From a plasmid, in the sequence record CP121101.1: 64,000 nt of DNA; one strand, written 5' to 3'. The notes beneath the pieces are model-generated. The model was not told the DNA's origin. It did not search any database and saw only the letters and a list, made by a program, of their open reading frames with translations. This document shows, piece after piece, positions 1 to 64,000 of this stretch. Within the stretch, counting starts at the first letter, position 1. Each line of letters opens with the position of its first letter. The position numbers and the translations under genes were made by a program.

Positions 1-159
1 AGCGGCAATTCAGTCTGTTTATCGCATGGTTGATGAGCGCGCAGGACAATACACATCCAATCCACTCGTAGAACAGCTACTCGAGCAGATGAAAGAAGCA
101 TATCGCGAAAATATTCTTCAAAACGCCGCCGAAGCTAGGTTCAAGACTGACGAGAATGA

Positions 160-1057
160 ATGATGGCCCAAGACATTTTTTTAGAACTTAATAATGCCGT
201 TTTGGACTTACAAGCTTCACAGCTACAAACCTACGAGCGACCTCTAAAGAGACTTGCCCAGTTACTGAAACACCCAGAGCTCAACACCTACAACGCAGAA
301 TTAACTTGTGGGCTGGATCTAGAGGCCTTTATCAATAAAAGTGAGCAAACCGGCGGAAGTATGGTGGGTAGTGCGCAACTTGCTTGGCCGGAAGATCCTA
401 GGCAAGTGCTGGGCTGACATTGCTTCTTATCGAGAAATTGGGGGATGACCCGCGCTATGCAACCAACTTTAGCCATCACTTCTTCTACTCCGGTAAAAAG
501 ATCATAGCTGGTATCCACTCTCTCACTGGGCAGCTAATTGTTCCCTTTGTCCGAGATTACAGAAATTATGTTCAGTCCAAAGGAAACACCCAAACCGTGT
601 TTAAACCCCGCCTCTCCCGCAAAGTCTTTATAGTTCACGGCCATGACGAAGGTGCGCGCGAGACTGTAGCCCGTTTCCTAGAGCGTATCGATTTAGAGAC
701 CCCGTCATCCTGCATGAGCAGGCCAACCAAGGACGAACCGTCATAGAGAAAGTCATCGCGCATAGTGATGTCGGTTTTGCCGTTGTTTTGCTCACACCCG
801 ATGATGAAGGGTGTGTTAAAGGCGGGACCCTAGAACCTCGAGCGAGGCAAAACGTGCTGTTAGAGCTGGGCTACTTCATTGGCAGCCTGGGCCGAGATAA
901 GGTGTGTGCTTCAAGAGGGGCATGCTGGAAATCCCGAGTGACTTTGCGGGTGTAGTCTGGGAGACAATGGATAGTAGTGGTGGCTGGAAGCAGGCTCTTG
1001 CCCGTGAACTAGCCGCGGCAGGCTACGATATTGATTGGAATAAAGTGATGCGCTGAT
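160..1057 (+). pseudogene. TIR-like (COG4271 / Cap12-type) nucleotide-binding domain protein, broken by at least three frameshifts
   Basis: Frame-3 ORF 420-746 reads ...KVFIVHGHDEGARETVARFLERIDLETP. The homology continues in other frames as ILHEQANQGRTVIEKVIAHSDVGFAVVLLTPDDEG...RARQNVLLELGYFIGSLGRDKVCA and LKRGMLEIPSDFAGVVWETMDSSGGWKQALARELAAAGYDIDW. These are hallmark motifs of the bacterial TIR-like family. ORF 160-417 lies in yet another frame immediately upstream. Confidence 0.5.
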
Positions 1058-1103
1058 AAGTATTGAGATAGTGATGCCTCCTATCAGTTGAATATCGCTT
1101 ATC

Positions 1104-1517
1104 ATGGATCCCATTGAGATCCACCCCATCAAACCAAACGCAAGTTTAATTGCATCAATTGGTCACAACCCACACTTATCTAACGCAGAACATATGACAC
1201 ATAAAATCATCGATACCGCACTTTTCTTTAGTTATGAAAACATGCTCACTCGCTTCAAGCGGGCGAAGAGTGAAGACACCTTGGACACGATGTATCGGGG
1301 GGCCGTCTACAAAGCCAATTCAAATCTACAGGGTAGCGACCTATTTCTGGCGCAAATCGCTATCGAGAGAGCACTGAACCAGTGTCAGCAAGATTTCGAC
1401 ACATCTCACACAGGTATGACCCGCAAAGTTAACCACGCCATCAAGCAAGCAGAAGAACCTTGCAAGCAGTACAACCCAGAAGAGGAGATGCGGCGACTCC
1501 TCTCCAGCATGAGCTAA
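1104..1517 (+). CDS. hypothetical protein (137 aa)
   Basis: Intact ORF with no recognisable motif, in a moderately AT-rich region. Confidence 0.3.
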   Translation: MDPIEIHPIKPNASLIASIGHNPHLSNAEHMTHKIIDTALFFSYENMLTRFKRAKSEDTLDTMYRGAVYKANSNLQGSDLFLAQIAIERALNQCQQDFDTSHTGMTRKVNHAIKQAEEPCKQYNPEEEMRRLLSSMS

Positions 1518-2381
1518 ACGAACCCATCCGAGCATCGATATTGTTATTACCTGACTAAATAACTCAAGATGAGCACCTTGCGATGACTGACTCGCAGTCG
1601 ATTTTGGTTAAATGGTTAAGTAGTTTTTATATAAATACAGGTAATTGGTATACATGGGAGAGCGTTTCAAGATATTCGCTCCTCAACAGATATAATCGTT
1701 TTATAGCAATAATTTTTAACCGCCTAACCATGAGCACCTCAAACTCACTAATGGCGTGGGTTAGAGACTGATTAAGTGGCACAGAGCCAGTTTAACCAGT
1801 GTCTACTCACAATAAACCAAGATGTTTTTTAATTGCCGTTGGTAACGGCAAGTTATCCACTTCATTGAACGACCTACTAGGCCTAGAGATGCCTGTGTGG
1901 ATTATCAGTCGATGATAGGCTTTGGTATCGTAAGCACCGCCTGCAAAATTTGTACCCAGCGTACAACGCAATAACTAGCATGGTGCTTTTTTCCTAGCAA
2001 AATTGGCAATCACGGGTAATTTGGCCGAGGTAATTAAGTGCCCTCTTGAAAGTTTAAAAGCTTTCTCCCACACAGGCGTTGGTATTCGCACCTTTCTTAG
2101 CCTGCTCAAGCGTCAGCGGCAAGCCGGCAGGTGGTGTTGTGGGTTTGTTCATGGCCTGATGATGCCGGACAGGTGGGATCAGGCAAGGAGCAACAGAGGA
2201 TCAAGGGACGATCGTCTCACTTTTCCCTATCAATACCCTCTGGGTGAACAGTTACGCCCAAACTCCATACCCAGAACGCTCAGCATAGTCCCTAGAATCG
2301 CGTAGGTGAGCATTTACTGGCTGGTGAGTGGCAATATATGCCTCCGCACCTCAATTCAATACAGAGCCTCTGGTGGCTGGT

Positions 2382-2401
2382 CTGTCGATGCAATATAAAA
2401 C
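2382..2401. repeat. direct repeat copy 1 (GTCGATGCAATATAAAA)
   Basis: The 17-20 bp sequence gtcgatgcaatataaaa(c) recurs about 257 bp downstream in AT-rich non-coding DNA. Confidence 0.5.
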
Positions 2402-2638
2402 ACCACAAGGGACTCATATGAACTTTTTTGAAATATTTTCAACTTTACCACTTGAAAATTTTCGAAATATGTCCACGTATTATAATTGAGAGCAATGAAA
2501 TTCTTATCTCTATTTCCCTATGCTTTCTCCTCTGAGAATCCTCTGTAATACCTCATATTTTAGCCACTATCAATACTCAAAGATGAGAATCAATGTCAAA
2601 CAAGATGAATGAGGGTGCGTTCTCTAGTATGGCTGACT

Positions 2639-2658
2639 GCATCGCTCGTCGATGCAAT
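2639..2658. repeat. direct repeat copy 2 (GTCGATGCAATATAAAA)
   Basis: Second copy of the 17-20 bp direct repeat. Confidence 0.5.
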
Positions 2659-2777
2659 ATAAAAACGTCGGAATGAATTTTTTCACGAAAGAAAATTTTC
2701 ACGCTAGTGATCTTGTTTTTTTGTGAACAAAAATACCAATACCACTTTTTAAAAAAATTAGATTATGAATTAACCCT

Positions 2778-4024
2778 TACCCATCCCCTCATATGAGCGA
2801 GGCGTGGCGCGGCTTCTGCGCTATCATCCTGCTCTTTGACCGGCAAATACCTGACTACTGACCTCCATGCTCGACCACCACACTATTCTCCAGCACATCG
2901 ATGACATATTGGCCAGGACAGGACATGCATGCCAAGCGCGTCCTCTCTCTGGCAAATGCAACCCAGGGCGTGCTCAGCTCCGGCTCTCTCGCCATCCATG
3001 CCATTGGCAATGGCCTCTCCGTTGCCCGCAGCATTGACCGCAAGCATGCCGTCAAACAGGTCGACCGCCTGCTGACCAACACCAAGCTCAACGTCTGGCT
3101 CCTGTTTCAGGATTGGGTGCCCTATGTCGTTGCCGAGCGCAAAGAGATTGTCGTCTCCATGGACTGGACCGAGTTTGACCAGGATGACCACTGCACCCTG
3201 GTCATCAGCCTGCAAACCAGCCACAGCCGTAACACGCCCCTGCTCTGGCAAACCCACCAGAAGTCGCTACTCAAGGGCAAGCGCAATGAGCATGAGCGCA
3301 CCTTGCTGGCCAAACTCAAGGCGTGCCTGCCAGCCGGCATCTTCACCACGGTGGTCGCCGACCGTGGCTTTGGCTACCGGGAGATGTTCGAACTGTTGGA
3401 AACCGAGTTCGATTTTGCCTATCTCATTCGTTTTAAAGGCAATATCCTGGTCGGTCATGCCGATGCAGAGCAGGTTCCTGCCCGTCAATGGCTCACCCCG
3501 ACCGGGCGAACGCGCACCCTCAAAGAGGTCGAGATGACCTGGACCCGTCATCCGGTCGCCCGCGTCTATTGCTGCCAGAAGAGTGGTATGAAGGAGCCCT
3601 GGTTTTTAGCCAGCAACCGCACCGACCTGAGCGCGGCCAGGGCACTGGGCCTGTACGGCAAGCGTTGGGGCATTGAAACCAGCTTCCGTGACATCAAGGA
3701 CTACCGTTTTGGCATGGGGATGGGGCAGGTACGGCTGAGCAGTCCGGCACGCCGTGACCGGCTGTTCCTGTTCAGCGCGCTGGCGATAGTGTTGCTGACG
3801 CTGCTGGGTAAGGCGGGTGACAGTATAGGGCTGGAGCGGACCATCAAGGTCAACACCAGCAAGAGCCGGAACTATTCGTTCTTCCGTCAAGGGTGCATTT
3901 ATTACGAATTATTACGACGATGAAGGAGGCGAATGCCCGACCGCTGATGGAGAAATTTGTTTATTACTTGAAACAGCACCGTTTATACACCAGCACGCTT
4001 GGCATTATTTGAGTCTTAAAAAAT
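2778..4024 (+). mobile_element. IS4-family insertion sequence (IS10-like architecture), about 1.25 kb
   Basis: Imperfect terminal inverted repeats CCCTTACCCATCCCCTCAT (left, about 2778-2797) and reverse complement CCCTTAGGGATCCCCTCAT (right, about 4005-4024) flank the transposase ORF. Exact termini and any TSD were not resolved. Confidence 0.5.
2901..3923 (+). CDS. IS4-family DDE transposase
   Basis: 340 aa and alignable with IS10 transposase: KRVLSL...KQVDRLLTN, VSMDWTEF, ADRGFG, KEPWFLASN, YGKRWGIETSFRDIKDYRFGMG. The ORF stops about 100 bp before the right IR, whereas the +1 frame continues to about 3990, so a 3-prime frameshift is possible. Confidence 0.75.
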   Translation: MTYWPGQDMHAKRVLSLANATQGVLSSGSLAIHAIGNGLSVARSIDRKHAVKQVDRLLTNTKLNVWLLFQDWVPYVVAERKEIVVSMDWTEFDQDDHCTLVISLQTSHSRNTPLLWQTHQKSLLKGKRNEHERTLLAKLKACLPAGIFTTVVADRGFGYREMFELLETEFDFAYLIRFKGNILVGHADAEQVPARQWLTPTGRTRTLKEVEMTWTRHPVARVYCCQKSGMKEPWFLASNRTDLSAARALGLYGKRWGIETSFRDIKDYRFGMGMGQVRLSSPARRDRLFLFSALAIVLLTLLGKAGDSIGLERTIKVNTSKSRNYSFFRQGCIYYELLRR

Positions 4025-4830
4025 GAGGGGATCCCTAAGGGTATAGTGGGGGCTGAGTTGTTCGCGTTTCATCATCCATGCTCTGGTGTCTCGACCTCGG
4101 GATGCGAAGTAGACCTTTCCCAACCGCCCCCTGATTAATCCTATCGATCACCTGCATATGTGCATCGCTACGGGGGTCGTGCTGCTAGTTTCTGAATGGA
4201 TCTCATTGCTGTATGCCTTTGGGAGAGAAGTCCGCCAGCATGACTCCACCCTTCATATAGCGGACATCATCCCGCCAGATCCGATGTAGCAGGAATTCGA
4301 TCTGGGCAAGCAACTCACGGGTATCAGCAGTGGGTATCGGCAACCGTGTGGATATTTGGTTGGCGTAGTGTGTTTCCCACTCCGCAAATGGGCTCGAACG
4401 TATGAATACTGTGACATGGCAGCAGTACATGCCCTCTGCCCTGAGTTTCTCAGCAGACCGTTCCATGTAGCCAGCGAGAGCCTCCCGCATGGGGCCAAAT
4501 TCGGTGATCCGCTTCCCGAAAGAGCGGGAGCAGATGATCTGCTGCTTGGCCTGGGCCATCGGCTCCAGTTCGGCGCAGGGAATCCCCCGCAGTTCCTGTA
4601 CTGTGCGTTCGACGACGCCATACCGGCGCCGCAGGCTCTTGGCATCAGGCGCTACTAGGCCAGCTACGGTGTTGATGTCTTGGGCTGTCATCCGTTGTTG
4701 AGCCGAATGCACAAACCTGGAGATGAGAAGCGGAGTTTGGTTATTGTCCCAACGTAGGATTACGACGGCTGGCTGGGTTGTCGTGACCCAGAGTTGGTAC
4801 GAACCTACCTTGTTCAGCAGGAAGCAGAAG
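4025..4830 (-). pseudogene. umuC: umuC-like remnant (second, diverged copy), multiply frameshifted, truncated at both ends
   Basis: ORF 4203-4712 ([25 protein letters not shown]...[37 protein letters not shown]...GGVMLADF) is about 80 percent identical to residues about 150-320 of the UmuC at 59075-60354. The homology continues downstream in another frame ([19 protein letters not shown]) right up to the IS4-family IS boundary at 4025, which lies about 12 codons before the expected stop. Weaker homology runs upstream to about 4830, and the N-terminal portion of the gene is absent. Confidence 0.7.
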
Positions 4831-4935
4831 TGTTGATGGGCTCGCCAACAAGCATAAAAAAGCTTTTGATAACAGTCGCTTCACTCACTCGATAAAATAT
4901 ATGGTGATTTTTATATACTCCCAAGGAAGTTATTT

Positions 4936-5409
4936 TTAGATGTCTGGTGCTAAGTTGAGTTTAAATTCCTTAAGCATCTCAAATGCTGCGGGATCCTTCG
5001 GTACAGGTAGTTGGTTGGCTTTCAGAACAGCTGCCCTACCGGACCTACAGACAGATGGGTCACCCTGGCCGTTATCCACTGAGTGGACAAAGCCACTGCT
5101 GGTAAGCTTCACACCGATAGTACAAGTTTTACCCCGCATTGTAGGATCTAATATCATATATCGATTAATCGTTGCGCTGATGAGGGCTGCATATTTGTCT
5201 ACGTCGCTTCTGGTTGTCACCGATGCGGTCTGGCTAAGGGAATAGGCTGCCATCTCTTTTTGCAGCCTTGCTTCTTCTGCCATCTGGGCTGTGGTTTTTG
5301 ACTTAGCTGGAGCTTGCATACTCGCAAGCGCCGCCATACAGCCAACCTTCCATTCATTTAAGCGTACCTGCCTACTCTCAATTACCTCTTTGAGATCGCC
5401 AGCAGCCAA
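4936..5409 (-). CDS. TolA C-terminal (domain III)-like protein, probably the C-terminal part of a short TolA paralog
   Basis: C-terminus aligns to E. coli TolA domain III: GKTCTIGVKLTSSG / QGDPSVCRSGRAAVLKANQLPVPK / AAFEMLKEFKLNLAP versus GKTCTLRIKLAPDG / GGDPALCQAALAAAKLAKIPKPP / AVYEVFKNAPLDFKP. Confidence 0.65.
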   Translation of the reverse strand: MAAGDLKEVIESRQVRLNEWKVGCMAALASMQAPAKSKTTAQMAEEARLQKEMAAYSLSQTASVTTRSDVDKYAALISATINRYMILDPTMRGKTCTIGVKLTSSGFVHSVDNGQGDPSVCRSGRAAVLKANQLPVPKDPAAFEMLKEFKLNLAPDI

Positions 5410-5747
5410 GACAGATTAGTATATTTTAATGTTTCCATTGGATCTCTTTCGAGTTTCCCCTCAACCAAAGCCATCGCTCTGCGCTCTTTTATTGCATACT
5501 GCTCAGTATTAATTTCATTGAGCTTATTTACCATTTGCTCTGTTTTATCTGCTTCGGTCCTTACGCTATCAAACCCTTTACATGTCTTGAATCCTGACCA
5601 AGAGTTGGCATCAGCTGACTGTGCAGCTTCAACTTTGATGCCAATGATCGCCATAACAGCTACCAACGTTAATCCTTGTACTTGGCGTGCGTTAACTTTA
5701 AAAACACCCCCTCCCAAAAAACAGTATGTCTGAGCATGTGATTTCAT
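5382..5747 (-). CDS. membrane-anchored coiled-coil protein, probably the N-terminal part of the TolA-like gene (28-nt overlap in a different frame)
   Basis: Single TM helix (GLTLVAVMAIIGI) followed by a charged coiled-coil segment. It overlaps ORF 4936-5409 in another frame, which suggests one gene with a frameshift. Confidence 0.4.
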   Translation of the reverse strand: MKSHAQTYCFLGGGVFKVNARQVQGLTLVAVMAIIGIKVEAAQSADANSWSGFKTCKGFDSVRTEADKTEQMVNKLNEINTEQYAIKERRAMALVEGKLERDPMETLKYTNLSWLLAISKR

Positions 5748-5883
5748 TTTTTTCCTATTTTTCTTTGTAGTAAAAAATTAGTAAACCCATCTCTAAAATG
5801 CATGTAACTAGCAAATATAAAAATAATTATCTGAGCAATACCTAGATACATATGTGGTTTCAATAAAACCGCAAAATATAGCA

Positions 5884-6186
5884 TCAATGAGACAACGACA
5901 CATAAAAATCGCTTGCAGCAGTATAGTAACTAAATTGACTTTCATTTGTTGATAATTTTATAGAACTTACAGATTTAGATATGTTGGCAGTTATTTGCCC
6001 AAATATTATGCATGCTGCTAACGACCAATCTGATGCTGTCAGTATATCTTGATAGTTTGAGCTGTATAATTTTACAAATACAAGTAAAATAAATGGGGTT
6101 ATTATGTAAATGTACGTAGCCTTGAGTTCCGCCATTATGGATTTTTTTTCGGAGTCAGAAATTTGATAACTCATGTTGATATCCAT
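5884..6186 (-). CDS. small two-TM membrane protein (about 95-100 aa)
   Basis: Two hydrophobic helices (YIYIITPFILLVFVKLY and WSLAACIIFGQITANI). It overlaps the upstream 287-aa gene by about 20-32 nt and lies in a region of about 30 percent GC. Confidence 0.45.
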   Translation of the reverse strand: MDINMSYQISDSEKKSIMAELKATYIYIITPFILLVFVKLYSSNYQDILTASDWSLAACIIFGQITANISKSVSSIKLSTNESQFSYYTAASDFYVSLSH

Positions 6187-7018
6187 GGCTCCTTATTATA
6201 GAGTTAATCTTAATTATCTTTGCATTTCTTATTTCTGTTTGCCCTTTTCCTGACGGCGTTTTATATATGTCGTATGTTATATCAGCATCAATCATATCTT
6301 TAGGGCCTATGGGTAGTATTAGTCCCTGCTGATATCGTTCTAACCATTCATTGTTTACAATGCGCGCACTAAAACTCCGTTCCATAATAGGACTTTTAAA
6401 AGTCCACACTGAATGACCTTCACCTTCATTCACAGCAATCTTTACATATAGTTTGTCAGTTATGGCATAGCTTTCAGATGCACCTAAAAACATTGCTTTA
6501 GGATTTCCCGTGAAACGCCACCTACTATTCAATGTGGCAACATTACCATTGTTAAGTGCTGATGTGAATTCTACATGTTCATTTGGTAATAGTTTCGAGT
6601 TTGCTTCGGATAATTTTGACAATACTGTAGCCAAATTTTTTCTGTCTACATATGGATCTAATTGTGATTCTGAGTTTTCATATAATTTGCTCTCTAACTT
6701 TAATGCAAGTAATTCGATGTCGGATTCTGACTCCGTGTGTTCTACGAGGTCGTCAAATAGTCGAAAACTACTATCTATAACTGTGTTAGCAACTGCACCT
6801 AATAATTTTTCTTTCAGTATAGATAGCTTTCCTATTACAGAGCTAATTGCTATATCATCCAGAATCAGTTCAAAATCACACTCTTGGTCAAGAGCGTTAG
6901 TAATAAGCTGTCCTAGATCCTTGTACCCATTGATATATAAAGCCATAGCTTGAAATACTTCGGATGGGTTATTTCTGTTTTTTAGAAAATCTATCTTAAT
7001 TGACAAATCAGAGTTCAA
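6155..7018 (-). CDS. hypothetical protein (287 aa), first gene of an AT-rich two-gene module
   Basis: Intact ORF with TTG start preceded by AAGGGGAA and an in-frame stop just upstream. No recognisable family, and GC is far below the surrounding DNA. Confidence 0.5.
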   Translation of the reverse strand: MNSDLSIKIDFLKNRNNPSEVFQAMALYINGYKDLGQLITNALDQECDFELILDDIAISSVIGKLSILKEKLLGAVANTVIDSSFRLFDDLVEHTESESDIELLALKLESKLYENSESQLDPYVDRKNLATVLSKLSEANSKLLPNEHVEFTSALNNGNVATLNSRWRFTGNPKAMFLGASESYAITDKLYVKIAVNEGEGHSVWTFKSPIMERSFSARIVNNEWLERYQQGLILPIGPKDMIDADITYDIYKTPSGKGQTEIRNAKIIKINSIIRSHGYQHELSNF

Positions 7019-7408
7019 TTATTTTCCCCTTTGAAACATTTTAATAATGCTCCTAGTACTGTAAGCCACAACCTGAAAAATATAATTTTAATGCCAATCT
7101 AACATACCCATTGTAATCTGTACCTGTTCACACATTCCTTAATCATGATTTCAAGTTCGTGCGGAACAATCAAAGCCCCGCATTGTCATCTTTCTTAAGA
7201 TCCTTATCGCACATATCTTTGTTGGAGAAGGCGTATTCTACTGTCAAATAACCGGTGTCTCCGCTGGCTGCATTCGCCATCAGGTACACATCAGTCAAAT
7301 TCCACGGCAGGGCTTTTTTTTCCCCCTTCCAGGAGCTTATCAGATAGCGATCTTTCTTGTTGAGCGCCATCATCCAATACTTACCTTCTTTCCAAATTGA
7401 TCCCGCCG

Positions 7409-8344
7409 TCAGGGGAAATCTAGCTTCTTGGCCTTGCCGTATTTTTCCGACAATATCTTATCAAGTTCATCAAATTCGCTTTTGACATCAAAACCATAGC
7501 CATTGGTCACAATGTCTTTGCCAATACCCTTAACCCAGCACAGCCCCGCATTATCCGAGATTTTGACGGCATAGTTTTCAAACTGGCTGTTGGGTTTGGG
7601 TGGATTGTCGAACAAATAAATGCCATTACCTTGCGGTTTCAGCTGGCCGGCAAACATGTCTACGGTCATCCCCATCGCCAAGCCAAAAGGGCCATCCGAC
7701 GCGACGATTTTACTAGTTTCAGCGACTGACACTGGTGCCGGAGCAGGAGTCAGTGTTGGTGCGGGGGATGCCGCCTGTGAGGCTGGCGTTGCAGCCGTTG
7801 CAGCCACGGCAGTGTTGGCCGGTGTAGCGGCGGACTTGCCCACTATCAACAAGCCGTATTTGGCTGACAAGCGTTGTTGCTCAAGCTGCGCAAGCGTTTG
7901 CTCGATAGTCGCGACCGTAGTCTGACTGAGGGCTGCCAGCAGGCCGCCGCTGTATTGCGCCGCCGTGGCCTTGGCATTGTCAAGTTTCAACTTGGTTTGC
8001 ACGATGTCGCCTTCCAGCTGCTTGGCTCGCTCTGGATCCGCTTTACTGGTGGGCGTTACCACCGTCACCTTCGTGCCGGTCTCAATAGCCTGGATACGTT
8101 GATTGACCACATCCTGACTCAGTTTCAGGGTCTCTTCTCGCATTTGCATGATGGTCAAGATCAGGCCGCTGCCCATTTGCGACATCTCGCCCGTTACACT
8201 GATGATCTCCTGCCCCAGTGCATCCCGCTCTTGCTTGAGCTGACCGACAAGCTCTTTTTCTTCTGTTGTTAATGTCTTTTGCTGATCACAGGCCGACATC
8301 ATAAAAACTGAACACACCAACAGTGCAACGTGCGTCTTTTTCAT
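7409..8344 (-). CDS. lipoprotein with coiled-coil region and Ala/Pro-rich linker
   Basis: Signal peptide plus lipobox (LLVCSVFMMSAC), long coiled-coil and a C-terminal globular domain. A 67-aa ORF (7170-7373) in another frame downstream may be a frameshifted continuation. Confidence 0.55.
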   Translation of the reverse strand: MKKTHVALLVCSVFMMSACDQQKTLTTEEKELVGQLKQERDALGQEIISVTGEMSQMGSGLILTIMQMREETLKLSQDVVNQRIQAIETGTKVTVVTPTSKADPERAKQLEGDIVQTKLKLDNAKATAAQYSGGLLAALSQTTVATIEQTLAQLEQQRLSAKYGLLIVGKSAATPANTAVAATAATPASQAASPAPTLTPAPAPVSVAETSKIVASDGPFGLAMGMTVDMFAGQLKPQGNGIYLFDNPPKPNSQFENYAVKISDNAGLCWVKGIGKDIVTNGYGFDVKSEFDELDKILSEKYGKAKKLDFP

Positions 8345-8633
8345 TTTTATCCTCTGTTTCTATATTATTAATTCATGATTAATATATAAACGAATAATGT
8401 CATACGGATAAATCAACACTAACCAGTCTGTCAGAAATCGGAATTCTTTAAAAGATTTATAGTTAAATGCGGGATTTTGATAGTAAAAGATCTGCCTAGC
8501 TTCACACTTTTGTGCTGCGTAGGGGCAGCAGTAAACAGCCTGCTCTCACCATGCGACAGCTAGTTTTGTATGCCATCTCCGTCCCTTAAAATATTTCTGT
8601 ATAGAGCTTGGATACTGCTATCAACTAGGCTAA

Positions 8634-9829
<1,196 letters not shown>

Positions 9830-10831: not shown

Positions 10832-10837
10832 CGGCGG

Positions 10838-53513: not shown

Positions 53514-53527
53514 ACACCTCCTTGTCC

Positions 53528-55273
<1,746 letters not shown>

Positions 55274-55696: not shown

Positions 55697-55731
55697 GAAG
55701 CGGCTCTCGCTGTTGTCGTTGGCTTGCTGGC

Positions 55732-56007: not shown

Positions 56008-56020
56008 GATGAACTCCTGG

Positions 56021-56371
56021 TTAATAGAAAAATGGAACGACATAGGGAAATCCAAGCGCGACCAGGACCAGCACGGCCACGATCCAGAAAATCAGCTTGT
56101 AGGTGGCGCGCACCTGCGGAATCGCGCAGACCTCACCTGGCTTGCATGCCTGCACGGGCCGGTAAATCCGCTTCCAGGCGAAGAACAGCGCCACTAGCGC
56201 CGCGCCGATGAACAACGGTCGATAGGGTTCCAGCACCGTCAGGTTGCCGATCCAAGCACCGGAGAAGCCCAGGGCGACCAGTACTAGCGGCCCCAGGCAG
56301 CAGGTCGATGCAAGAATGGCGGCCAGCCCGCCGGCGAAGAGCGCACCGCGCCCGTTTTGTGGTTCAGACAT
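56021..56371 (-). CDS. merT: MerT mercury transporter (116 aa)
   Basis: [72 protein letters not shown]... Confidence 0.95.
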
Positions 56372-56394
56372 ACGTTGGCCCTTTTGAATTTGGA

Positions 56395-56440
56395 TTGGAT
56401 AGCGTAACCTTACTTCCGTACTCATGTACGGAGTCAAGCG
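56395..56440. promoter_or_regulatory. mer operator/promoter (MerR dyad between divergent merR and merT promoters)
   Basis: Reverse complement reads CGCTTGACTCCGTACATGAGTACGGAAGTAAGGTTACGCTATCC: -35 TTGACT, the dyad TCCGTACATGAGTACGGA, and -10 TAAGGT with 19-bp spacing, as in Tn21/Tn501. Confidence 0.85.
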
Positions 56441-56442
56441 AT

Positions 56443-56877
56443 ATGGAAAATAATTTGGAAAACCTGACCATTGGCGTTTTTGCCAAGGCGGCCGGGGTCA
56501 ACGTGGAGACAATCCGCTTCTATCAGCGCAAGGGCCTGTTGCGGGAACCGGACAAGCCTTACGGCAGCATCCGCCGCTATGGGGAGGCGGACGTGGTTCG
56601 GGTGAAATTCGTGAAATCGGCACAGCGGCTGGGGTTCAGTCTGGACGAGATTGCCGAGCTGTTGCGGCTCGACGATGGCACCCACTGCGAGGAGGCCAGC
56701 AGCCTGGCCGAACACAAGCTCAAGGACGTGCGCGAGAAGATGGCCGACTTGGCGCGCATGGAAACCGTGCTGTCTGAACTCGTGTGCGCCTGCCATGCAC
56801 GAAAGGGGAATGTTTCCTGCCCGTTGATCGCGTCACTACAGGGCGAAGCAGGCCTGGCAAGGTCAGCTATGCCTTAG
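56443..56877 (+). CDS. merR: MerR Hg(II)-responsive regulator (144 aa)
   Basis: [144 protein letters not shown]. The stop codon lies within IRmer. Confidence 0.95.
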
Positions 56878-56910
56878 CGTGCTTTATTTTCCGTTTTCTG
56901 AGGTGCCCCC
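56873..56910. repeat. Tn21-family IR (mer end), imperfect copy
   Basis: CTTAGCGTGCTTTATTTTCCGTTTTCTGAGGTGCCCCC. The 30 inner bp are identical to the tnp-end IR; the tip differs (GTGCCCCC against ACGACCCC). Followed by TGGAA. Confidence 0.85.
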
Positions 56911-57287
56911 TGGAAGAGCGAGGTTTTCATAGGTTTCGCTGGGCACATAGCTACATAGGGAATCGCCTGATTTGACAGAATTCAGAAGATCCTGGTACGC
57001 AGATAGCCACTGTTGTTTATCAATATGTGGGAATACTTGAGCCATCGCATGAGCGAGTAGCACATCATCGATTGCTTGGTTCATGAATTGGACCTCGTTG
57101 CATCTGGGCTTTACGCCCGGGTTGGTGTTGGTCACGAGTGGCACATTGCGGACCGAGTGCCATAAGACAGCCTTGGGCTGTTTCTGCATGTGCGCTGACG
57201 CCGGAGAAATACCGGTGAACGGACATGCAGAATCAGCCAACGAGGGCTTGGGTGATAGATCACAGGTGGGGGTACCTGCAGAGTGCA
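56911..57287 (-). pseudogene. 5-prime part of the hypothetical gene interrupted by the transposon
   Basis: MNQAIDDVLLAHAMAQVFPHIDKQQWLSAYQDLLNSVKSGDSLCSYVPSETYENLAL, with RBS GAGG upstream. Removing the transposon and one TGGAA copy restores a single ORF of about 200 aa with the 30184-30566 part. Confidence 0.6.
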
Positions 57288-57488
57288 GGGAGAGTTGAAG
57301 TTGGTGCCTGGCCGGACGGCCTGTCCCCACGTGGGCACCGAGGACAACCGCAGGATACCGAATATCATGAATGGGAGCAACAGCATCAACTCAGGTTGCG
57401 GCTGGCGACCTGATTACCTAAGCAAGGCAAAGCAGCAATGTATGGGGGGCACTGACCCCCTACAAATGTGCAGAGTTCCCTGATCGAA

Positions 57489-58379
57489 TTAGCCACCCCT
57501 CAAGGTTGCCATCCACCGCTGTGCCTGCGCCACCAGTATCCCTCCGCCGGCGCTCTCCAGGATCGTCCGCACACTGCCGACCACGGCGCCAATCACTGAC
57601 CATTTTGGGTTAGGGGAGGCGGCCTGGGCCTTGAGGGTATCCAGATCGGCCTGCAGCTCTGCACACGCCTCTCCCTGCAGTTGCCCTTGCGCGACCACCT
57701 GCTGCAGCCACGGCAACAAAGCCGCCAGCGCCTCGGACTTCTGCTCGCCTGTCACCGTCTGCTGTTGTTGGCCGCCGGGCGAGCCCAACATCATTTGACC
57801 TCCGATGACATCCCCCCCAATGAAAATATTGGTCACCGATTCCGCCTGCTTCTGCTCCTGGGTGGTAAAGCTCATCCCTTCACCTTGGATCCCCAACTCA
57901 TCCAGATCGAGTGCCCATTCAAGGACCTTAGTACGCACCGCACCGATCAAACGCTGGACCTGATTTGCTCCAAATCGAACTTGTGGTGCGATTGGCATTT
58001 TATAGAGAGCCGCTACCATCTTCGATTGAGACGGGTCCATGGGCAACACTACATATTCTGTCCCTGAAGCCAATGGTTCCACTCCATCAATGGGATAATA
58101 GAAGGGACATGTTGTCATCACCTCGTGAAGCTCTGCATTCAGGACCGGTAGCAGCACAAGACCTTTCCCCGGGTTAATGGCGTACAGTTGCCCCGTCAAA
58201 ATCCGGTACTGAGGGATAACAGCCGACTCTGGGTAGCCATCAAGTTCGTTTTTGATCCAGCTAACCCAGTCAGGCTGCTTGAGCTTACGTGCGGCCACCA
58301 GTGCGTTTCGCAGTAGATCGGTTGTCTTGACTTCGGGATTACTGGCTATGGTGATGAGCTGAGGGATAAGGGCGGGCAT
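57489..58379 (-). CDS. paralog 1 of a tandem family: AbiTii-like N-terminal domain protein with poly-Q linker and C-terminal hydrophobic helix (296 aa)
   Basis: MPALIPQLITIASNPEVKTTDLLRNALVAARKLKQPDWVSWIKNELDGYP... resembles the N-terminal domain of AbiTii abortive-infection proteins (assignment from memory). ...GSPGGQQQQTVTGEQK... C-terminal PKWSVIGAVVGSVRTILESAGGGILVAQAQRWMATL. RBS AGGAG 7 nt before the ATG. Confidence 0.5.
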   Translation of the reverse strand: MPALIPQLITIASNPEVKTTDLLRNALVAARKLKQPDWVSWIKNELDGYPESAVIPQYRILTGQLYAINPGKGLVLLPVLNAELHEVMTTCPFYYPIDGVEPLASGTEYVVLPMDPSQSKMVAALYKMPIAPQVRFGANQVQRLIGAVRTKVLEWALDLDELGIQGEGMSFTTQEQKQAESVTNIFIGGDVIGGQMMLGSPGGQQQQTVTGEQKSEALAALLPWLQQVVAQGQLQGEACAELQADLDTLKAQAASPNPKWSVIGAVVGSVRTILESAGGGILVAQAQRWMATLRGG

Positions 58380-58435
58380 CAATGCGCTCCTGGGCGATAT
58401 TGGGCCCTATTGTACCCGGGTTCGGTGGTTTGGAT

Positions 58436-58449
58436 TGCAGGATTGCAAG
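58436..58449. promoter_or_regulatory. palindromic operator-like site TTGCA-N4-TGCAA in the leader of paralog 1
   Basis: TTGCAGGATTGCAA, about 20-25 nt upstream (in gene sense) of a TACAAT -10-like hexamer. The same dyad occurs in all four complete leaders. Confidence 0.45.
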
Positions 58450-58619
58450 CGGCAGGATCCCGGCCGCCCTCATGGCCAGCGGTTGGCTCACGTTGACCGG
58501 TCACCCAGCCGGCAAACGCGGCAGTTTACCCGTTCCGCAGGTGCTGCTAGAACCAACGCAAAACGACAAAAAATGCGGAGCTAAATGCTAAACGGTGATC
58601 CTCACTGGGTTGGTTGGTA

Positions 58620-58639
58620 TACTGTGTTTTTATACAGCA
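58620..58639. promoter_or_regulatory. LexA (SOS) box upstream of umuD
   Basis: TACTGTGTTTTTATACAGCA = CTGT-N8-ACAG, 8-10 nt before the umuD ATG at 58647. Confidence 0.8.
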
Positions 58640-58646
58640 ACCAGAG

Positions 58647-59078
58647 ATGACCAGCATGTTTGCTCAACCCGCCCCTAATGCTCCCTTGCTGGAGATCCCC
58701 CTGTTTCTCTCCCCTGTAGCCTGCGGCTTTCCGTCCCCGGCGCAGGATTACACCGAGCAAACCATAGACCTTAATCTGCTGTGCGTGGCGCACCCGGCGG
58801 CCACCTACTTTGTGCGGGCGGCCGGTGACAGTATGGTCGACCACGGGATCCGCGATGGCGACCTGCTGGTCGTGGACCGCAGTCGCAAGGCGCGCCACGG
58901 TAGCGTGGTGGTCGCCGCGGTCGATGGTGAGTTCACCGTGAAGCAGCTGCAGCTTGATCCCACTGTGGCCTTGCTCCCTGGCAACCCGGCCTATCGGCCT
59001 ATCCATTTCAGTGAGGGGCAGGAGCTGGAAATCTTCGGGGTGGTGTCCTTTATCGTGCATCAGGTGGATGCCCCATGA
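58647..59078 (+). CDS. umuD: UmuD (translesion polymerase V accessory subunit, LexA-like self-cleaving)
   Basis: ...[78 protein letters not shown]... Ser/Lys protease motifs (GDSM...K) present. The stop overlaps the umuC start (ATGA). Confidence 0.85.
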
Positions 59079-60354
59079 ACAAGTGCTGCACCGTCGCCCT
59101 GGTGGACGTGAACAACTTCTACGCTAGCTGCGAGCGGCTGTTTCGGCCCGACCTTAAGGGGCGGCCAATAGTCGTGCTCTCGAACAACGATGGCTGCGTG
59201 GTAGCCCGTTCGGCAGAGGCCAAAGCGCTCGGCATCAAGATGGGAGTGCCGTACTTTCAGATCCGTCAATTCTTCGAGGCTATGGGCGGGGTCTGGTTTT
59301 CCAGCAATTATGCCCTTTATGGCGACATGTCGAACCGGGTGATGACCATTTTGGAGGGGATGGCCCCGGCGGTGGAGGTCTACAGCGTTGACGAGGCCTT
59401 TATCGAGTGAGCGAACGCTGGGCGGGCGACTTGGTGGCCTATGGCCACCAAGTCCGCGAGCGGGTGCAGCAGTGGACCGGGCTGACCGTGGGGGTCGGCA
59501 TCGGCCCCACCAAGACGCTCGCCAAGCTCGCCAACTACGCCGCCAAGAAGTGGCCCGCCACGGGCGGTGTGGTCGATCTGCGGGATGAAGGACGCCGCGT
59601 CAGGCTGATGGCGATCACCCCGGTAGACGAGGTATGGGGTATTGGTCGGCGGCTCACCGCCAAGCTGGAGACCCAGGGCATCAAGACCGTGGCGGAACTG
59701 GTCGCCGCCGACCCCAAGAGCCTGCGCCGCCGCTATGGCGTGGTGGTCGAGCGCACGGTGCAGGAACTGCGGGGGATACCCTGCGCTGAGCTGGTGCAAG
59801 TGGCCCAGGCCAAACAGCAGATTATCTGCTCGCGTTCGTTTGGGGAGCGCATCACCCAGATCGGCCCCATGCATCAGGCTCTGGCGGGTTACATGGAGCG
59901 GGCCGCCGAGAAATTGCGAGGGGAGGGGATGTGCTGCCGCCATGTCACCCTGTTCATTCGCACCAGCCCATTCAGCGACCGGGAGCCCTATTACGGCAAC
60001 CAGGTGAGCAGCAGGCTGGTCATGCCCACCCATGACACCCGGGCGCTGCTGGCTCTTATCCCCGAGCTACTCCCCCGCATCTGGCGTGACGAGCAGCGTT
60101 ATCAGAAGGGAGGCGTGATGCTGGCCGACTTCACCCCCGCCAACATGCAACAGGGCGACCTGTTCGCAGCTGAGCTGCAATCTCCGCGCAGTGAGGCGCT
60201 GATGCAGGTCATCGACAAGATCAATCAGGGGAGGCTTGGTAAAGTCTTCTTCGCGGCCCGAGGCCAAGAGAACAGAGAATGGATGATGAAGCGAGAGCAG
60301 TTGAGCCCTCGTTATACCACTGCCCTACATGAATTGCCGATCGCAATGACATAA
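59075..60354 (+). CDS. umuC: UmuC (Y-family DNA polymerase V catalytic subunit) with a frameshift after about codon 110
   Basis: ORF 59075-59410 ([62 protein letters not shown]...[10 protein letters not shown]) and ORF 59407-60354 ([48 protein letters not shown]...) are contiguous UmuC. They are separated by a -1 shift at TTTATCGAGTGAGCG (about 59400-59412). Confidence 0.85.
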
Positions 60355-60476
60355 CCATGATTTTGAGTGATGAGGGGAAAAACCATTCCACTAAAGATGA
60401 GTTATTTCCTCCTTCTTCGGCTGTTTTCCCAAAATGCAAAGCGGACTGTCGCCCCGCCCATGAATCCGGCTATCAA

Positions 60477-61354
60477 TCAGCTACCGGTCAAGATAGCCAG
60501 CCACCCCAGCGCTTGTGCCGAAAGCACTCCTCCGGCGCCTTCCAGGATCGCCCGCACACTGTTGGCCAAGGTTCCAATCAACGGCCAGCTCGGCGTGGGG
60601 GCGTCGGCCTGCGCCTGCAGGGCTGCATGCTTGGCCTGCAAATCGGCGTGTGCCGATACCGATAGCGTTCCCTCGGCGTTCACCTGCTGGAGCCAGGCCA
60701 GCAAGAAGACAGAGCATCGGTCTTTTGCTCGCCGGACACTGTCTGCTGTTGATGGCCCCCGGGCGAGTTCAGCTGAATTTGAACACCAGTCGCATTCCCT
60801 CCGATGTGTATGCTCACCGGCGCCACCTGCCGTTCTTGCGGAGTGACGCTCATGCTGTCCCCCTGAACACCGGAAGCGGCCAAAGCGAGTGCCCAGTCTA
60901 GCACCCGCTCCTGCACCGCCGCGATGAGGGCCCGCATCTGGACCGTCGGCATACAAATCTCCACCTCCCGTTCGGTACCGATTTCGGCCATCAGCAAGCT
61001 CATGAGCTCAGGGGGGAATCGGACCCTCAGTGCTTTGCCGGTTGCGGCCAGCTCAGCCAGCTCGCTTGCGGGCAGCGAGAGCGGGCAAGTTTGCCACTGT
61101 ACCGCCCGCTCGGTGTTGGCAACTGACAGCAAGTGGTGGGACCCTGCCTGCCAGTACGCCAGATTCCCGCGCCGCTGGCGATAACGGGGCACACCGCAGC
61201 CGTCAGGATAGCCCTGTAGCTCATGGTCAAGCCAGATGATTGCCTCGGGCTGTTGGAGCAGACGTGCCACCACCTTTGCCATGCGCAGCAACTTAGTGAT
61301 TTCAACGTTCGGATCGCTGGCCAGGGTGATGAGTTCGGGAACATGGGCAGGCAT
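60477..61354 (-). CDS. paralog 2 of the AbiTii-like family, with a 3-prime frameshift
   Basis: MPAHVPELITLASDPNVEITKLLRMAKVVARLLQQPEAIIWLDHELQGYPDGCGV... The ORF stops at 60680 (...QQQTVSGEQKTDALSSCWPGSSR*). The family-typical C-terminus (...LQAKHAALQAQADAPTPSWPLIGTLANSVRAILEGAGGVLSAQALGWLAILTGS) continues in the frame of ORF 60477-60956. Confidence 0.5.
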
Positions 61355-61409
61355 GGGGTGCTCCTGGGCAATAGTGGGGGCCTATTGTACCCGGTTTCGG
61401 TCGTGCGGG

Positions 61410-61423
61410 TTGTAGTGCTACAA
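61410..61423. promoter_or_regulatory. palindromic operator-like site (variant TTGTA-N4-TACAA) in the leader of paralog 2
   Basis: TTGTAGTGCTACAA upstream of TACAAT (gene sense), RBS AGGAG. Confidence 0.45.
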
Positions 61424-61916
61424 GCGGAGAGGATCCGCTCCGGGTCAAAAAAAAGGGAGGCCGAAGCCTCCCTCCAAAAAGTCACTTTTTGAACCAGTTT
61501 CACTGGCCTACGTGTAGGTGAAAGTGAAGAGAAATCTTCACTTGATACACGCAGATCAGCATCAAACCGCTAGCGATAATCATGCTTGATAGCATATCGA
61601 TCTCCATATCAAATCAGGTGAATCCGTTCACCTGAGGGTTATTGGCCTCCTGGCTAGCCATAAGACTCGCTCTTGTGCCCGTGTTGACATTATACACCCT
61701 GCCCCCCAACATTTTTCATAAATTCATGATAAATCATGTAGATAATATATAATTCTCACGCTGGTATCACTCGCCCCCAATACTTGACCAGCCCTGTTTA
61801 TCTACGAAGTATTCCCCGCGTCCACAATATGGGCTGCACCAGTTGATCTGGCTTGTATCTCGCAACGCCACCCGCCGCACGAAGAAAACGTGGCCTGCTG
61901 CCTCTGCCGGACTAGC

Positions 61917-62774
61917 TCAGTGGCCGTTAAGGGTTGCCAGCCACTTCAGCACCAGTTCGCTCAGAACCCCGCCGCCGGCTCCTTCCAGAATCGCCGCAAC
62001 AGTGCTGGCCACCGCAGCGATCACCGGCCATTTCCACTTGGGGGCGGCGGTCTGGGCCTTGATAGTATCCAGCTCGCTCTGAAGCACATTGCCGTTTGCC
62101 AGCTGCAGTGGCTTCTCCTGCGCCACCCCAGGCTGGTCCGTAGCCTTCTGCCCGCCGGTGATGGTTTGCTGTTGCTGGCCCCCGGGCGAGCTCACCATCA
62201 GTTGACCACCGTTGAACCCGCCCTCGATGCGAATGGTAACCGGCGCCAGCGGCTGGGGCGAGGAGGGCATTTCGTCCCCCTCGATCCCGGCCTCAACCAA
62301 GTCGAGCACCCAGGTCAACAGTTGGTCCCGGACCGCATCAACAAGTGCGCGGATCTGATTGCCGCCAACCACCCGTACCGGCTCCATTGAGATATTCAGG
62401 TCTTGCATCAGCATGGCCATCATCTCCGGCGGGAGAACCATGCTCACATTTTTCCCGGGAATAGCCACGTCTTCCAACCCGCTGATGGGCTGACCAATGC
62501 TGCATGTCGAGACAGCTTCTGCGAATTCAGGGTGGTCGATGATGATGGGGATCAGCCCTCGAAAGGGATTCCGAGCTTTCAATTCACAGCGTATGACACG
62601 ATAGGAGGGCAGCTTGGCATCATCCGGATAGCCCCGCAGCTCATGGTCGATCCAGGTAGCCCACTCAGCCTGTTTTAGCATACGGGCGACCACCTTGGCC
62701 TTGCGGAGCAGATCGGTGGTCTTAACTGCCGGATCACCGGCCAGGGCAATCAGGTCAGATAGCGAGGTGGACAT
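61917..62774 (-). CDS. paralog 3 of the AbiTii-like family (286 aa, apparently intact)
   Basis: MSTSLSDLIALAGDPAVKTTDLLRKAKVVARMLKQAEWATWIDHELRGYPDD...VSSPGGQQQQTITGGQK...KWKWPVIAAVASTVAAILEGAGGGVLSELVLKWLATLNGH. RBS AGGAG. Confidence 0.5.
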   Translation of the reverse strand: MSTSLSDLIALAGDPAVKTTDLLRKAKVVARMLKQAEWATWIDHELRGYPDDAKLPSYRVIRCELKARNPFRGLIPIIIDHPEFAEAVSTCSIGQPISGLEDVAIPGKNVSMVLPPEMMAMLMQDLNISMEPVRVVGGNQIRALVDAVRDQLLTWVLDLVEAGIEGDEMPSSPQPLAPVTIRIEGGFNGGQLMVSSPGGQQQQTITGGQKATDQPGVAQEKPLQLANGNVLQSELDTIKAQTAAPKWKWPVIAAVASTVAAILEGAGGGVLSELVLKWLATLNGH

Positions 62775-62829
62775 CGAGGTGCTCCTGGGCGACAAGGGAG
62801 GTCCAGTGTACCCGATCTGGCCCGGTCAG

Positions 62830-62843
62830 TTGCAACGCTGCAA
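62830..62843. promoter_or_regulatory. palindromic operator-like site in the leader of paralog 3
   Basis: TTGCAACGCTGCAA, about 19 nt upstream (gene sense) of TACACT. Confidence 0.45.
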
Positions 62844-62915
62844 GCGGGTCGGATACAGCCGGTCCGCTCTGGCTGGATTTGAGCTTGGCTTTGTCCGTTG
62901 GCCCCAGTATGCAAA

Positions 62916-62933
62916 GCGGGGCCGCAGCCCCGC
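62916..62933 (-). terminator. conserved GC hairpin in the 3-prime UTR of paralog 4
   Basis: Gene-sense GAGCGGGGCTGCGGCCCCGCTTTGCATAC: 7-8 bp stem followed by TTTGC. The same element recurs at 63971-63988, and degenerately at about 60435-60460. Confidence 0.5.
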
Positions 62934-62953
62934 TCATACCCCGACGATAGCGA

Positions 62954-63828
62954 TCAGCCGCCGCTCAAGCTGGCCAGCCACTTCAGCACCAGCTCGCTCA
63001 GCACCCCGCCGCCGGCGCCTTGCAGCACGGCCAGCACGCTACTACCGGCCAGCACGACGATCAGCGGCCATTTCCGCTTGGCGGTGGCGGCCTGGGGCTT
63101 GAGGGTGTTCTGCTCGCTCTGCCGCGTGTCGCGGTCTGCCGGCTGCCGTGGTGCATCCGCGCTCCCCTGCGCCAACCCGGACGGGCCCGCGGCCTTCTGC
63201 TCGCCGGTGACGGTTTGCTGTTGCTGGCCTCCCGGCGAGCTCACCATGACTTGGCCACCGTGGAACCCGCCCTCGATGTGAACGGTCACCGGCGCCAACG
63301 GCTGGGGTGGGGAGGGCATCCCGTCCCCCTCGATCCCGGCCTTGGCCAGCTCGAGTGCCCAGTCCAACACCTTGTCACGGACTTGAGCTACGACGGCCTC
63401 AGTTGGGATGCGTCCAGTTGATGCACGACCTGGTACTGATCGCGGGCTTTCGCTGACAAGCCATCGTAAACGCGATGCCCAGAGGGGAGTTGCACATAGA
63501 GGGTGCCTTGTGACCCCAGCGCCTCCAACTTGCTGATCGAATCAAAACAGAGGTGAGCCTGAGCGGGAATCTCACCGTCAGTTTGGAACGTAAACAGATC
63601 AGTCAATTCGCCTGTCTGGACATCCCGCAGGTACACCGGGGCACGGATAAAACGGTATAGAGGAAGAGGATCTGACTCACGGTAGCCCCGCAGCTCCAGG
63701 TCGATCCAGGCTAACTGGTCGGATAGCTGGCACCGGTGGGCGATCACCTTGGCCTTGCGCAGCAGATCGGCTGTCTTGACGGCCGGATCGCTGGCCTGGG
63801 CGATGAGTTCAGGGAGTGGGGCGGGCAT
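62954..63828 (-). CDS. paralog 4 of the AbiTii-like family, frameshifted in the middle
   Basis: MPAPLPELIAQASDPAVKTADLLRKAKVIAHRCQLSDQLAWIDLELRGYRESD... (ORF 63388-63969 frame) continues after a shift at about 63370-63410 as ...IPTEAVVAQVRDKVLDWALELAKAGIEGDGMPSPPQPLAPVTVHIEGGFHGGQVMVSSPGGQQQQTVTGEQK...KWPLIVVLAGSSVLAVLQGAGGGVLSELVLKWLASLSGG (ORF 62954-63370). Confidence 0.5.
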
Positions 63829-63883
63829 CCAGGCGCTCCTAGGCGACAAAAGAGCCCCAGTGTACCCGATTTGGCCTGCGCGA

Positions 63884-63897
63884 TTGCAGCGCTGCAA
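63884..63897. promoter_or_regulatory. palindromic operator-like site in the leader of paralog 4 (perfect dyad)
   Basis: TTGCAGCGCTGCAA, about 19 nt upstream (gene sense) of TACACT, RBS AGGAG. Confidence 0.45.
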
Positions 63898-63970
63898 GCG
63901 CGGGGCGGACCCCGCTCGCCCTCGCTGACCCGATTGGGGGTGGGCTTTGGCCGCTGACCAAGAAAGCAAA

Positions 63971-63988
63971 GCGGGGCCGCAGCCCCGC
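63971..63988 (-). terminator. conserved GC hairpin, presumably the 3-prime end of a fifth paralog lying beyond the window
   Basis: GCGGGGCCGCAGCCCCGC in the same context (aaagcaaagc...cccatgcccc) as the hairpin at 62916-62933. Confidence 0.4.
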
Positions 63989-64000
63989 CCATGCCCCGAT

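Follow-up and report, generated by a model that had tools for sequence, protein, structure and literature searches.

Racon polishes by default in windows of 500 bp, and the chunk size of PacBio Quiver/Arrow is 500 bp as well. Real reductive pseudogenization is known, for example, from Aeromonas salmonicida A449 and Mycobacterium leprae. In Racon-type schemes the alignment pile is cut into non-overlapping 500-bp windows and the results are concatenated (PMC9636371), and metaMDBG includes a Racon-like polisher with a junction-trimming fault of the kind considered here (PMC13087279). In long-read assemblies, errors in less than 0.05% of the bases resulted in 23% pseudogenes (PMC12007338). In this study, a stretch of 64,000 nucleotides from the plasmid record CP121101.1 (positions 1 to 64,000, hereafter the window) was analyzed for the small insertions and deletions that break the reading frames of its genes. 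An earlier inspection of the letters and open reading frames (ORFs), the sequence-only reading, had described pervasive frame breaks in more than 20 genes and had left genuine large-scale pseudogenization and indel-type assembly error as two alternatives. Assembly error is now strongly supported by the regular spacing of the lesions, by their uniqueness and by the lack of substitutions; large-scale pseudogenization is unsupported. The lesions exist, are unique to one contig, come without accompanying substitutions and lie multiples of 500 bp apart. With a probability of roughly 0.93, the frameshifts are artefacts of the way in which the consensus of the public assembly was built, in windows of 500 bp, and not mutations.

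Spacing, uniqueness, and context of the lesions

The window was aligned to near-identical public copies and every difference was listed, with differences in the plasmid backbone being polarised by outgroups. In total, 39 small indels were verified against near-identical DNA. Three further breaks in a TIR-like gene, for which there is no near-identical DNA reference, were located by protein homology (tblastn of homologues), and a 69-bp deletion in mph(A) as well as a garbled junction between two IS26 copies were found. Overall, about 25 genes are affected, and the error density is 0.064%, or approximately one lesion per 1.6 kb. Nearly all frame breaks of the sequence-only reading were recovered at the positions it had given. 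The public copies carry the canonical sequence at these sites, and the lesions are specific to the window except for the product of IS26 copy 1.

The distances between the lesions are strikingly regular. Of 39 spacings between consecutive lesions, 32 deviated from a multiple of 500 by at most 25 bp, and mostly by no more than 10 bp (binomial p = 1.4e-25); an equally good periodicity was not reached by any of 20,000 random position sets. Modulo 500, the positions form runs of 412–423 (from 2915 to 7414), 211–226 (10217 to 25211), and 196–214 (28706 to 49705), followed at the right end by 407–408 (58408 to 60407) and 398–399 (63399 to 63898). Examples of such series are 23221/24221/25211, 36707/37206/38203, and 58408/59407/60407. 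Over each kb the lattice shifts by a few bases, and no lesion is present at about 70% of its junctions. Two of the three breaks in the TIR-like gene, located independently by protein homology, lie at predicted lattice points. This periodicity is the decisive result in favor of an artefact. An accumulation near the 3′ ends of genes, as proposed earlier, was not confirmed; the positions follow the 500-bp lattice regardless of gene structure.

At the kb scale the placement is uniform (Kolmogorov–Smirnov test, p = 0.70). The largest lesion-free gap measures 7,664 bp (7.7 kb; P = 0.21 for the final list), and for an earlier list the probability of a gap of at least 6,143 bp was 0.49; an intact mer block of 5.5 kb is thus compatible with chance. 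Only four of the 39 lesions are in frame, and the two IS26 copies carry different lesions. Uniform placement, the small number of in-frame lesions, and the differing IS26 lesions give no sign of selection. Coding sequence at first seemed to be struck too rarely (24 of 35, p = 0.036), an effect that weakened after two sites first listed as intergenic had been assigned to small genes.

Eight of nine truncated products that were looked up occur on exactly one contig, an NCBI contig of 211,418 bp. A full-length DUF4400 protein with a substitution unique to the window (position 12221) was also found on that contig only. Similarly, the 311-aa fragment of a split 390-aa protein and its 67-aa partner are both on this contig, and the intact 390-aa form is present on 20 contigs and indexed in 47 blocks. 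As the truncated products were recorded in the public protein collection from the 211,418-bp contig, the lesions are part of the deposited record and were not added to the window. The insertion of TACCT in IS26 was absent from the best-scoring 5,000 plasmid records (19,567 matched places), the insertion of CG in mrx from 2,861 plasmid records carrying mrx, and the 69-bp deletion from 2,837 plasmid records carrying mph(A). A 38-mer across the AT insertion in traD (12724) had no match in genome and metagenome collections.

The sole exception among the truncated products is the 125-aa product of IS26 copy 1 (P0181), which was found on 22 other contigs. These belong to Klebsiella and E. coli assemblies, some of the contigs being larger than 5 Mb. 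Such a distribution suggests either a recurrent sequencing error at 50254 or a circulating dead IS26 variant.

One frame break does not belong to the set. The umuC remnant (4140–4794, minus strand; C-terminal half only) is broken at about residue 385–390, near 4.2 kb, and had been counted with the same phenomenon. The break also occurs in an independent contig (L014) and, being common to an independent assembly, is genuine and lies outside the artefact set. It is an old lesion in a pseudogene fragment beside an IS4-family element and the only genuine one found.

The comparison with relatives, which were found via exact match of backbone proteins, revealed indels without the substitutions that usually go with divergence. 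Three independent short-read assemblies of the same plasmid lineage (L022, L024, and L026, one of them a metagenome contig) differ from the window over 24334–30567 and 56910–64000 (13.3 kb) by eight indels and no substitution. A fourth relative (L027), which overlaps the window from 26722, confirmed seven of the same eight indels, again with no substitution. Over 9826–26721, the comparison with L010 and L011 gave three substitutions and 10 indels. For the backbone overall (27.8 kb), two isolated substitutions stand against 17 indels, which is the reverse of natural divergence; spontaneous mutation in E. coli mutation-accumulation studies reportedly yields about 10 substitutions per indel. At six indels in the region 2773–8633, the window stands alone against eight independent contigs that agree with one another. 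The relatives compared carried none of the 39 verified indels.

The nearest relatives encode full-length TraI (673 aa), TraD (714 aa), UmuC (426 aa), and Ter-binding protein (302 aa). A decaying, probably non-self-transmissible element with inactivated transposases, as had been considered before, does not agree with the intact TraI, TraD, and UmuC of these plasmids. Real evolution was also considered on account of an apparent synonymous bias relative to the plasmid pAER-f909 (10 of 17 substitutions synonymous), and was rejected, most of these substitutions being common to the nearest relatives L010 and L011.

A probable consensus artefact and its alternatives

The types of lesion are few. Among the 19 insertions, 15 are exact tandem duplications of the adjacent 1–6 bases, in line with the earlier impression that many lesions are short repeat expansions and not homopolymer errors; the remaining four are complex (a duplication with an adjacent substitution) or consist of a single inserted base. 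Nineteen of the 22 deletions remove 1 bp, and the others include one loss of 2 bp and one of 69 bp. Both classes would arise if the consensus had been built one window of about 500 bp after another and the pieces then concatenated, with approximately 30% of the window junctions joined out of register. A misjoin would either drop one base (the 19 cases, with the 2-bp and 69-bp losses as larger examples) or write the last 2–6 bases twice, which would give the tandem duplications. Because junctions would fall anywhere, genes and spacers would be struck alike and about 25 genes would seem frameshifted. The responsible software would be a polisher with 500-bp windows, of the Racon type or similar, and the biological plasmid would have intact genes.

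Four observations weigh against this explanation. Firstly, the lattice does not include four lesions: the sites 8831 and 9872, one TIR-like break (near 700), and the cluster at the IS26 junction (50600–50630); these may be ordinary homopolymer or consensus errors, a local mis-consensus at the palindromic IS26–IS26 junction, or real variants. Secondly, the lattice changes phase abruptly in three places (at 7.4–10.2 kb, near 50 kb, and within 50.7–58.4 kb), for which the explanation does not account in detail. Thirdly, the resistance genes carry three lesions, compared to approximately 7.3–7.8 expected (binomial P ~0.03–0.05), a deficit that is weak, marginal (P ~0.03–0.07 overall), and post hoc. 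Finally, tool and platform are deduced from the pattern of the lesions.

Ordinary stochastic or homopolymer errors of a long-read consensus, obtained at low depth with no short-read polishing and unrelated to window junctions, are the best surviving alternative, and an unlikely one. Long reads would have been needed to cross the several repeats on the contig (two IS26, two Tn3-family transposase genes, IS5, and IS6100), and published long-read assemblies resemble it both in error rate (0.064% here) and in the extent to which genes are fragmented. A few lesions do lie in homopolymers (8831 in a run of four T; 21226, 21723, 23221, and 29710 in runs of three A; 50254 in a run of three C), and pAER-f909 has a G-run error of its own in traD. 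Random errors, however, would not fall on a 500-bp lattice (p ~1e-25). No concentration of indels in homopolymer runs was seen among 20 single-base deletions tallied by hand, including one at 61446 that was later dropped. An isolated base was removed in 11 of them, and the deleted base stood in a run of two in three cases, of three in five, and of at least four in one, which is close to the random expectation of 56, 28, 10, and 5% for run lengths of 1, 2, 3, and at least 4. The commonest insertion length was 2 bp, and 4–6 bp of unique sequence were duplicated as well, unlike the homopolymer-dominated profile in PMC12007338. An association of the deletions with methylation motifs had no support.

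Alteration of the sequence after assembly, either deliberate (synthetic corruption) or caused by a faulty consensus or variant call format (VCF) application script that handled the sequence 500 bp at a time, appears less probable still. Strict periodicity and lesions that either duplicate or drop bases would fit any chunk-wise text processing. The truncated products, however, are already public under the 211,418-bp NCBI contig, and a drifting lattice with about 70% clean junctions fits an alignment-based window consensus better than text handling at a fixed offset.

Genuine pseudogenization would mean a decaying plasmid or integrative and conjugative element (ICE) in which a burst of frameshifts, caused for instance by curing agents that intercalate or by a mutator specific for indels, had inactivated transposases, relaxase, coupling protein, and some of the resistance genes; this is barely credible. 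Replication slippage also yields tandem duplications and single-base deletions, the resistance genes are struck slightly less than expected and the mer operon is untouched, and the umuC remnant proves one real old lesion in the lineage. Nevertheless, no known biological process puts mutations every 500 bp. The relatives show indels in place of substitutions, the lesions are confined to one contig, and the two IS26 copies are struck at different sites. Moreover, one indel per 1.6 kb genome-wide would be expected to break about 40% of the genes and to be lethal. A real burst restricted to the plasmid, which would have silenced transfer and transposition genes and spared most resistance genes, with the 500-bp spacing being coincidental or due to some periodic process, is just as hard to believe, and we know of no plasmid-restricted indel mechanism.

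Lesions and genes along the window

The following sites of the sequence-only reading were found again: IS5 (8831), traD (12724), traI (24221), Tn21-family tnpA (30702), tnpR (33710), qnrVC4 (36707), qacF (37206, then called qacH-like), IS6100 (43199), mrx (48712), IS26 copy 1 (50254) and copy 2 (50744), umuC (59407), the TolA-like gene (5412), and three switches in the TIR-like gene (near 412, 700, and 905). The IS1071-like tnpA, for which two breaks had been noted, corresponds to a second Tn3-family tnpA with three (44196, 45214, and 46706). The alignment added lesions at 2915, 3915, 5915, 6423, 7414, 9872, 10217, 20223, 21226, 21723, 25211, 28706, 29710, 34707, 38203, 58408, 60407, and 63898, the 69-bp deletion in mph(A), and the IS26–IS26 junction. 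Three extra lesions affect genes already listed (traD 14224, traI 23221, and Tn21-family tnpA 31711). Below, the position modulo 500 is given as "mod".

The TIR-like gene (163–1056, plus strand) switches from frame 1 to 3 at 411–414, probably by a 1-bp loss (on the lattice, phase ~415), from frame 3 to 2 at an ACCCCG tract at 698–704 (off the lattice), and from frame 2 to 1 in a GTGTGTG tract at 902–909, probably by duplication of TG (about 8 bp from the lattice point 915). All three were placed against protein homologues. The best homologues share 70–84% protein identity and are mostly fragments. An N-terminal domain of unknown function is followed by a C-terminal CAP12/Pycsar-type TIR domain (PF10137), and the gene could be a defence effector gene.

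Positions 2773–8633 form a module bounded by insertion sequences (IS) that recurs in Aeromonas contigs and metagenomes, with IS5 at 8630–9834. A 4.6-kb module within it (compare L014–L021) comprises genes of 381, 390, 285, and 142 aa, the TolA-like gene, and the umuC remnant. It is flanked by IS4-family elements and is near-identical in Aeromonas isolates and several metagenomes, and it behaves like composite transposon cargo. The IS4-family transposase (380 aa in relatives) has an insertion of AGGA with two adjacent substitutions at its 5′ end (2915–2918, mod 415; compared to L014, L015, and L020) and lost a C at its 3′ end (3915–3916, mod 415). In the TolA-like gene (270 aa in relatives, here ORFs of 157 and 121 aa) a T is missing at 5412–5413 (mod 412). 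The 142-aa gene shows a complex change of +2 at 5915–5917 (GC plus an adjacent substitution, mod 415), and the 285-aa gene an in-frame tandem duplication of CCTTCA at 6423–6428 (mod 423). An additional GG at 7414–7415 (mod 414) splits the 390-aa protein (P0121) into 311 aa (P0078) and a 67-aa fragment. The IS5 transposase carries an additional T in a T4 run at 8831 relative to the closest IS5 variant (L013); this site is off the lattice and may be either a real variant or a homopolymer error of the ordinary kind. Also off the lattice, a C is missing at 9872–9873 in the remnant of a 79-aa gene cut by IS5.

The DNA of the window belongs to a plasmid of the Aeromonas type. Its backbone (9826–30567 and 56910–64000) shares 99.7% identity with pAER-f909 (NZ_CP026221.1, L001) and approximately 90% with further Aeromonas plasmids. 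Three typed relatives (L001, L003, and L004) are MOBH and rep_cluster_1332. In the plasmid database, every close relative is a circular plasmid with a size of 161–244 kb, and the window's own NCBI contig has 211,418 bp. The label ICE given in the sequence-only reading was not supported: the backbone is that of an Aeromonas MOBH plasmid family, and neither an integrase nor an attachment site was found in the 64-kb window. The names "ICE protein" on its genes are family labels only.

In the left part of the backbone, an intergenic tandem duplication of 3 bp with an adjacent substitution was found at 10217–10220 (mod 217). The traD gene has an additional AT at 12724–12725 (ATAT to ATATAT) and lacks a G at 14224–14225 (mod 224). 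An additional C lies at 20223 (mod 223), at the boundary between the stop of the AcaB gene and the start of a 107-aa gene. A 326-aa gene gained an A at 21226 (mod 226) and lost one at 21723–21724 (mod 223). The traI relaxase gene lost an A at 23221–23222 and a C at 24221–24222 (both mod 221), and a 182-aa gene an A at 25211–25212 (mod 211). The Ter/Tus-like gene, whose product has 302 aa in relatives and 182 aa in the window, carries an additional TG at 28706–28707 (mod 206), and a 123-aa gene lacks an A at 29710–29711 (mod 210).

A 26.3-kb Tn21-type resistance transposon (30567–56910) interrupts a 183-aa backbone gene of which relatives have an intact copy. The transposon ends in inverted repeats of 38 bp and is accompanied by a target duplication, CTGGA(A); terminal repeats and direct repeat are the mark of a normal transposition event. 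Its gene order is tnpA, tnpR, intI1, the cassettes qnrVC4, qacF, aacA4, cmlA5, blaOXA-10, aadA1, and dfrA14, then IS6100, the second Tn3-family tnpA, mphR, mrx, mph(A), two tandem IS26, and the mer operon. Over the 5.5 kb of the mer end (51417–56910), the sequence does not differ from canonical Tn21. No indel was found in intI1, aacA4, cmlA5, blaOXA-10, aadA1, dfrA14, mphR, and all mer genes, just as the sequence-only reading had listed them.

The Tn21-family tnpA (canonical 988 aa, here 963 aa) has an additional GA at 30702–30703 (mod 202) and an in-frame tandem duplication of TGA at 31711–31713 (mod 211). A T is missing in tnpR at 33710–33711 (mod 210), and a C in the intergenic region from the urf/EAL remnant to intI1 at 34707–34708 (mod 207). 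In the cassettes, qnrVC4 lost an A at 36707–36708 (mod 207; compared to L005) and qacF lost CG at 37206–37207 (mod 206). Between aacA4 and cmlA5, a G is missing at 38203–38204 (mod 203). The IS6100 transposase has an additional CC at 43199–43200 (mod 199). The second Tn3-family tnpA (1005 aa) carries a tandem duplication of TTGCG at 44196–44200 (mod 196), an additional TG at 45214–45215 (mod 214), and near its 5′ end the loss of a G at 46706–46707 (mod 206). In mrx, CGCG became CGCGCG by insertion of CG at 48712–48713 (mod 212). Codons 2–24 of mph(A) were lost by the 69-bp in-frame deletion at 49705–49706 (278 instead of 301 aa); its position on the lattice is mod 205, and it is probably a junction artefact too.

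The IS26 pair (49779–51415) is a direct tandem in which copy 2 lacks the first 4 bp of the inverted repeat, and a natural pair (CP067938.1, L029) is arranged alike. The transposase of copy 1 lost a C at 50254–50255 (CCC to CC), and that of copy 2 carries a tandem duplication of TACCT at 50744–50748. At the junction (50597–50630, off the lattice), the window differs from the natural tandem pair by the loss of TG, the change of AGCG to GCAAATT, and the loss of GTC.

To the right of the transposon, a C is missing upstream of umuD at 58408–58409 (intergenic, mod 408), in umuC at 59407–59408 (mod 407; the 426-aa product becomes 111 and 315 aa), and downstream of umuC at 60407–60408 (intergenic, mod 407). 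The right backbone (57489–64000) contains an array of paralogous AbiTii-domain genes (PF18864, 285–300 aa each) adjoining umuDC, with small ORFs in between; relatives have at least seven copies. Two of the paralogs, numbers 2 and 4, had been reported as frameshifted, and this holds for one AbiTii-domain paralog (291 aa), in which a G is missing at 63399–63400 (mod 399). An additional GC lies between AbiTii paralogs at 63898–63899 (mod 398).

Five candidate indels were dropped. The difference at 14102 is a 1-bp loss in a G-run of pAER-f909 itself, which splits its traD into 544 and 193 aa; 22940 is a variable T-run; 61446 is common to relatives; 56887 is specific to the first reference used and not to the window; and an apparent additional T at 49705 is the edge of the mph(A) deletion. 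The public relatives are not free of errors, as in addition to the split traD of pAER-f909 a split traI was found in L010 (QORK01000032.1). Isolated substitutions unique to the window are located at 6259, 12221, 23378, 33071, and 47207 and are mostly G to T or C to A. Those at 12221 and 47207 lie on the 500-bp lattice, and the one at 23378 turns a G inside a T-run into T.

Consequences and comparison with known systems

Every functional reading of the window rests on the artefact result. For the organism itself, the relaxase, the coupling protein, the transposases, qnrVC4, qacF, mrx, umuC, and mph(A) should be taken to be intact, and a description of the plasmid as decaying or immobile should be avoided. 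The deposited NCBI contig carries approximately one such error per 1.6 kb, and truncated products are already present in large protein collections as singletons. The feature is not biological and of low biological interest; its practical value is that of a quality-control warning for annotation. Frameshift positions with a common remainder modulo 500 flag window-stitching errors from the sequence alone, and reads are not needed for this purpose.

With reductive pseudogenization as in A. salmonicida A449 and M. leprae, the window shares a large number of frameshifted genes, transposases and transfer genes among them. Real decay, however, is common to related isolates, is accompanied by substitutions and relaxed codon constraint, and is not periodic. 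Within the window, only the umuC remnant behaves in this way.

The likeness to gene-fragmenting indels of long-read assemblies (PMC12007338, Kastor; PMC9262707; PMC8442456) is closer. There as well, far less than 0.1% of wrong bases frameshift a large share of the genes, and the errors are exposed by comparison with close relatives. The published profiles are dominated by homopolymers, whereas here losses of isolated bases, duplications of 2–6 bp, and periodicity were found.

The closest match is provided by window-junction errors of Racon-type polishing, in which non-overlapping 500-bp windows of partial-order alignment are trimmed before they are concatenated, and by the acknowledged fault in the Racon-like polisher of metaMDBG (PMC13087279). 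For the present record, PacBio Quiver/Arrow may also have been the tool, and in our literature search no paper was found that documents the duplication half of the lesion spectrum. What the window has in common with these errors is the 500-bp period, the position of the lesions at junctions regardless of gene content, and their restriction to one assembly.

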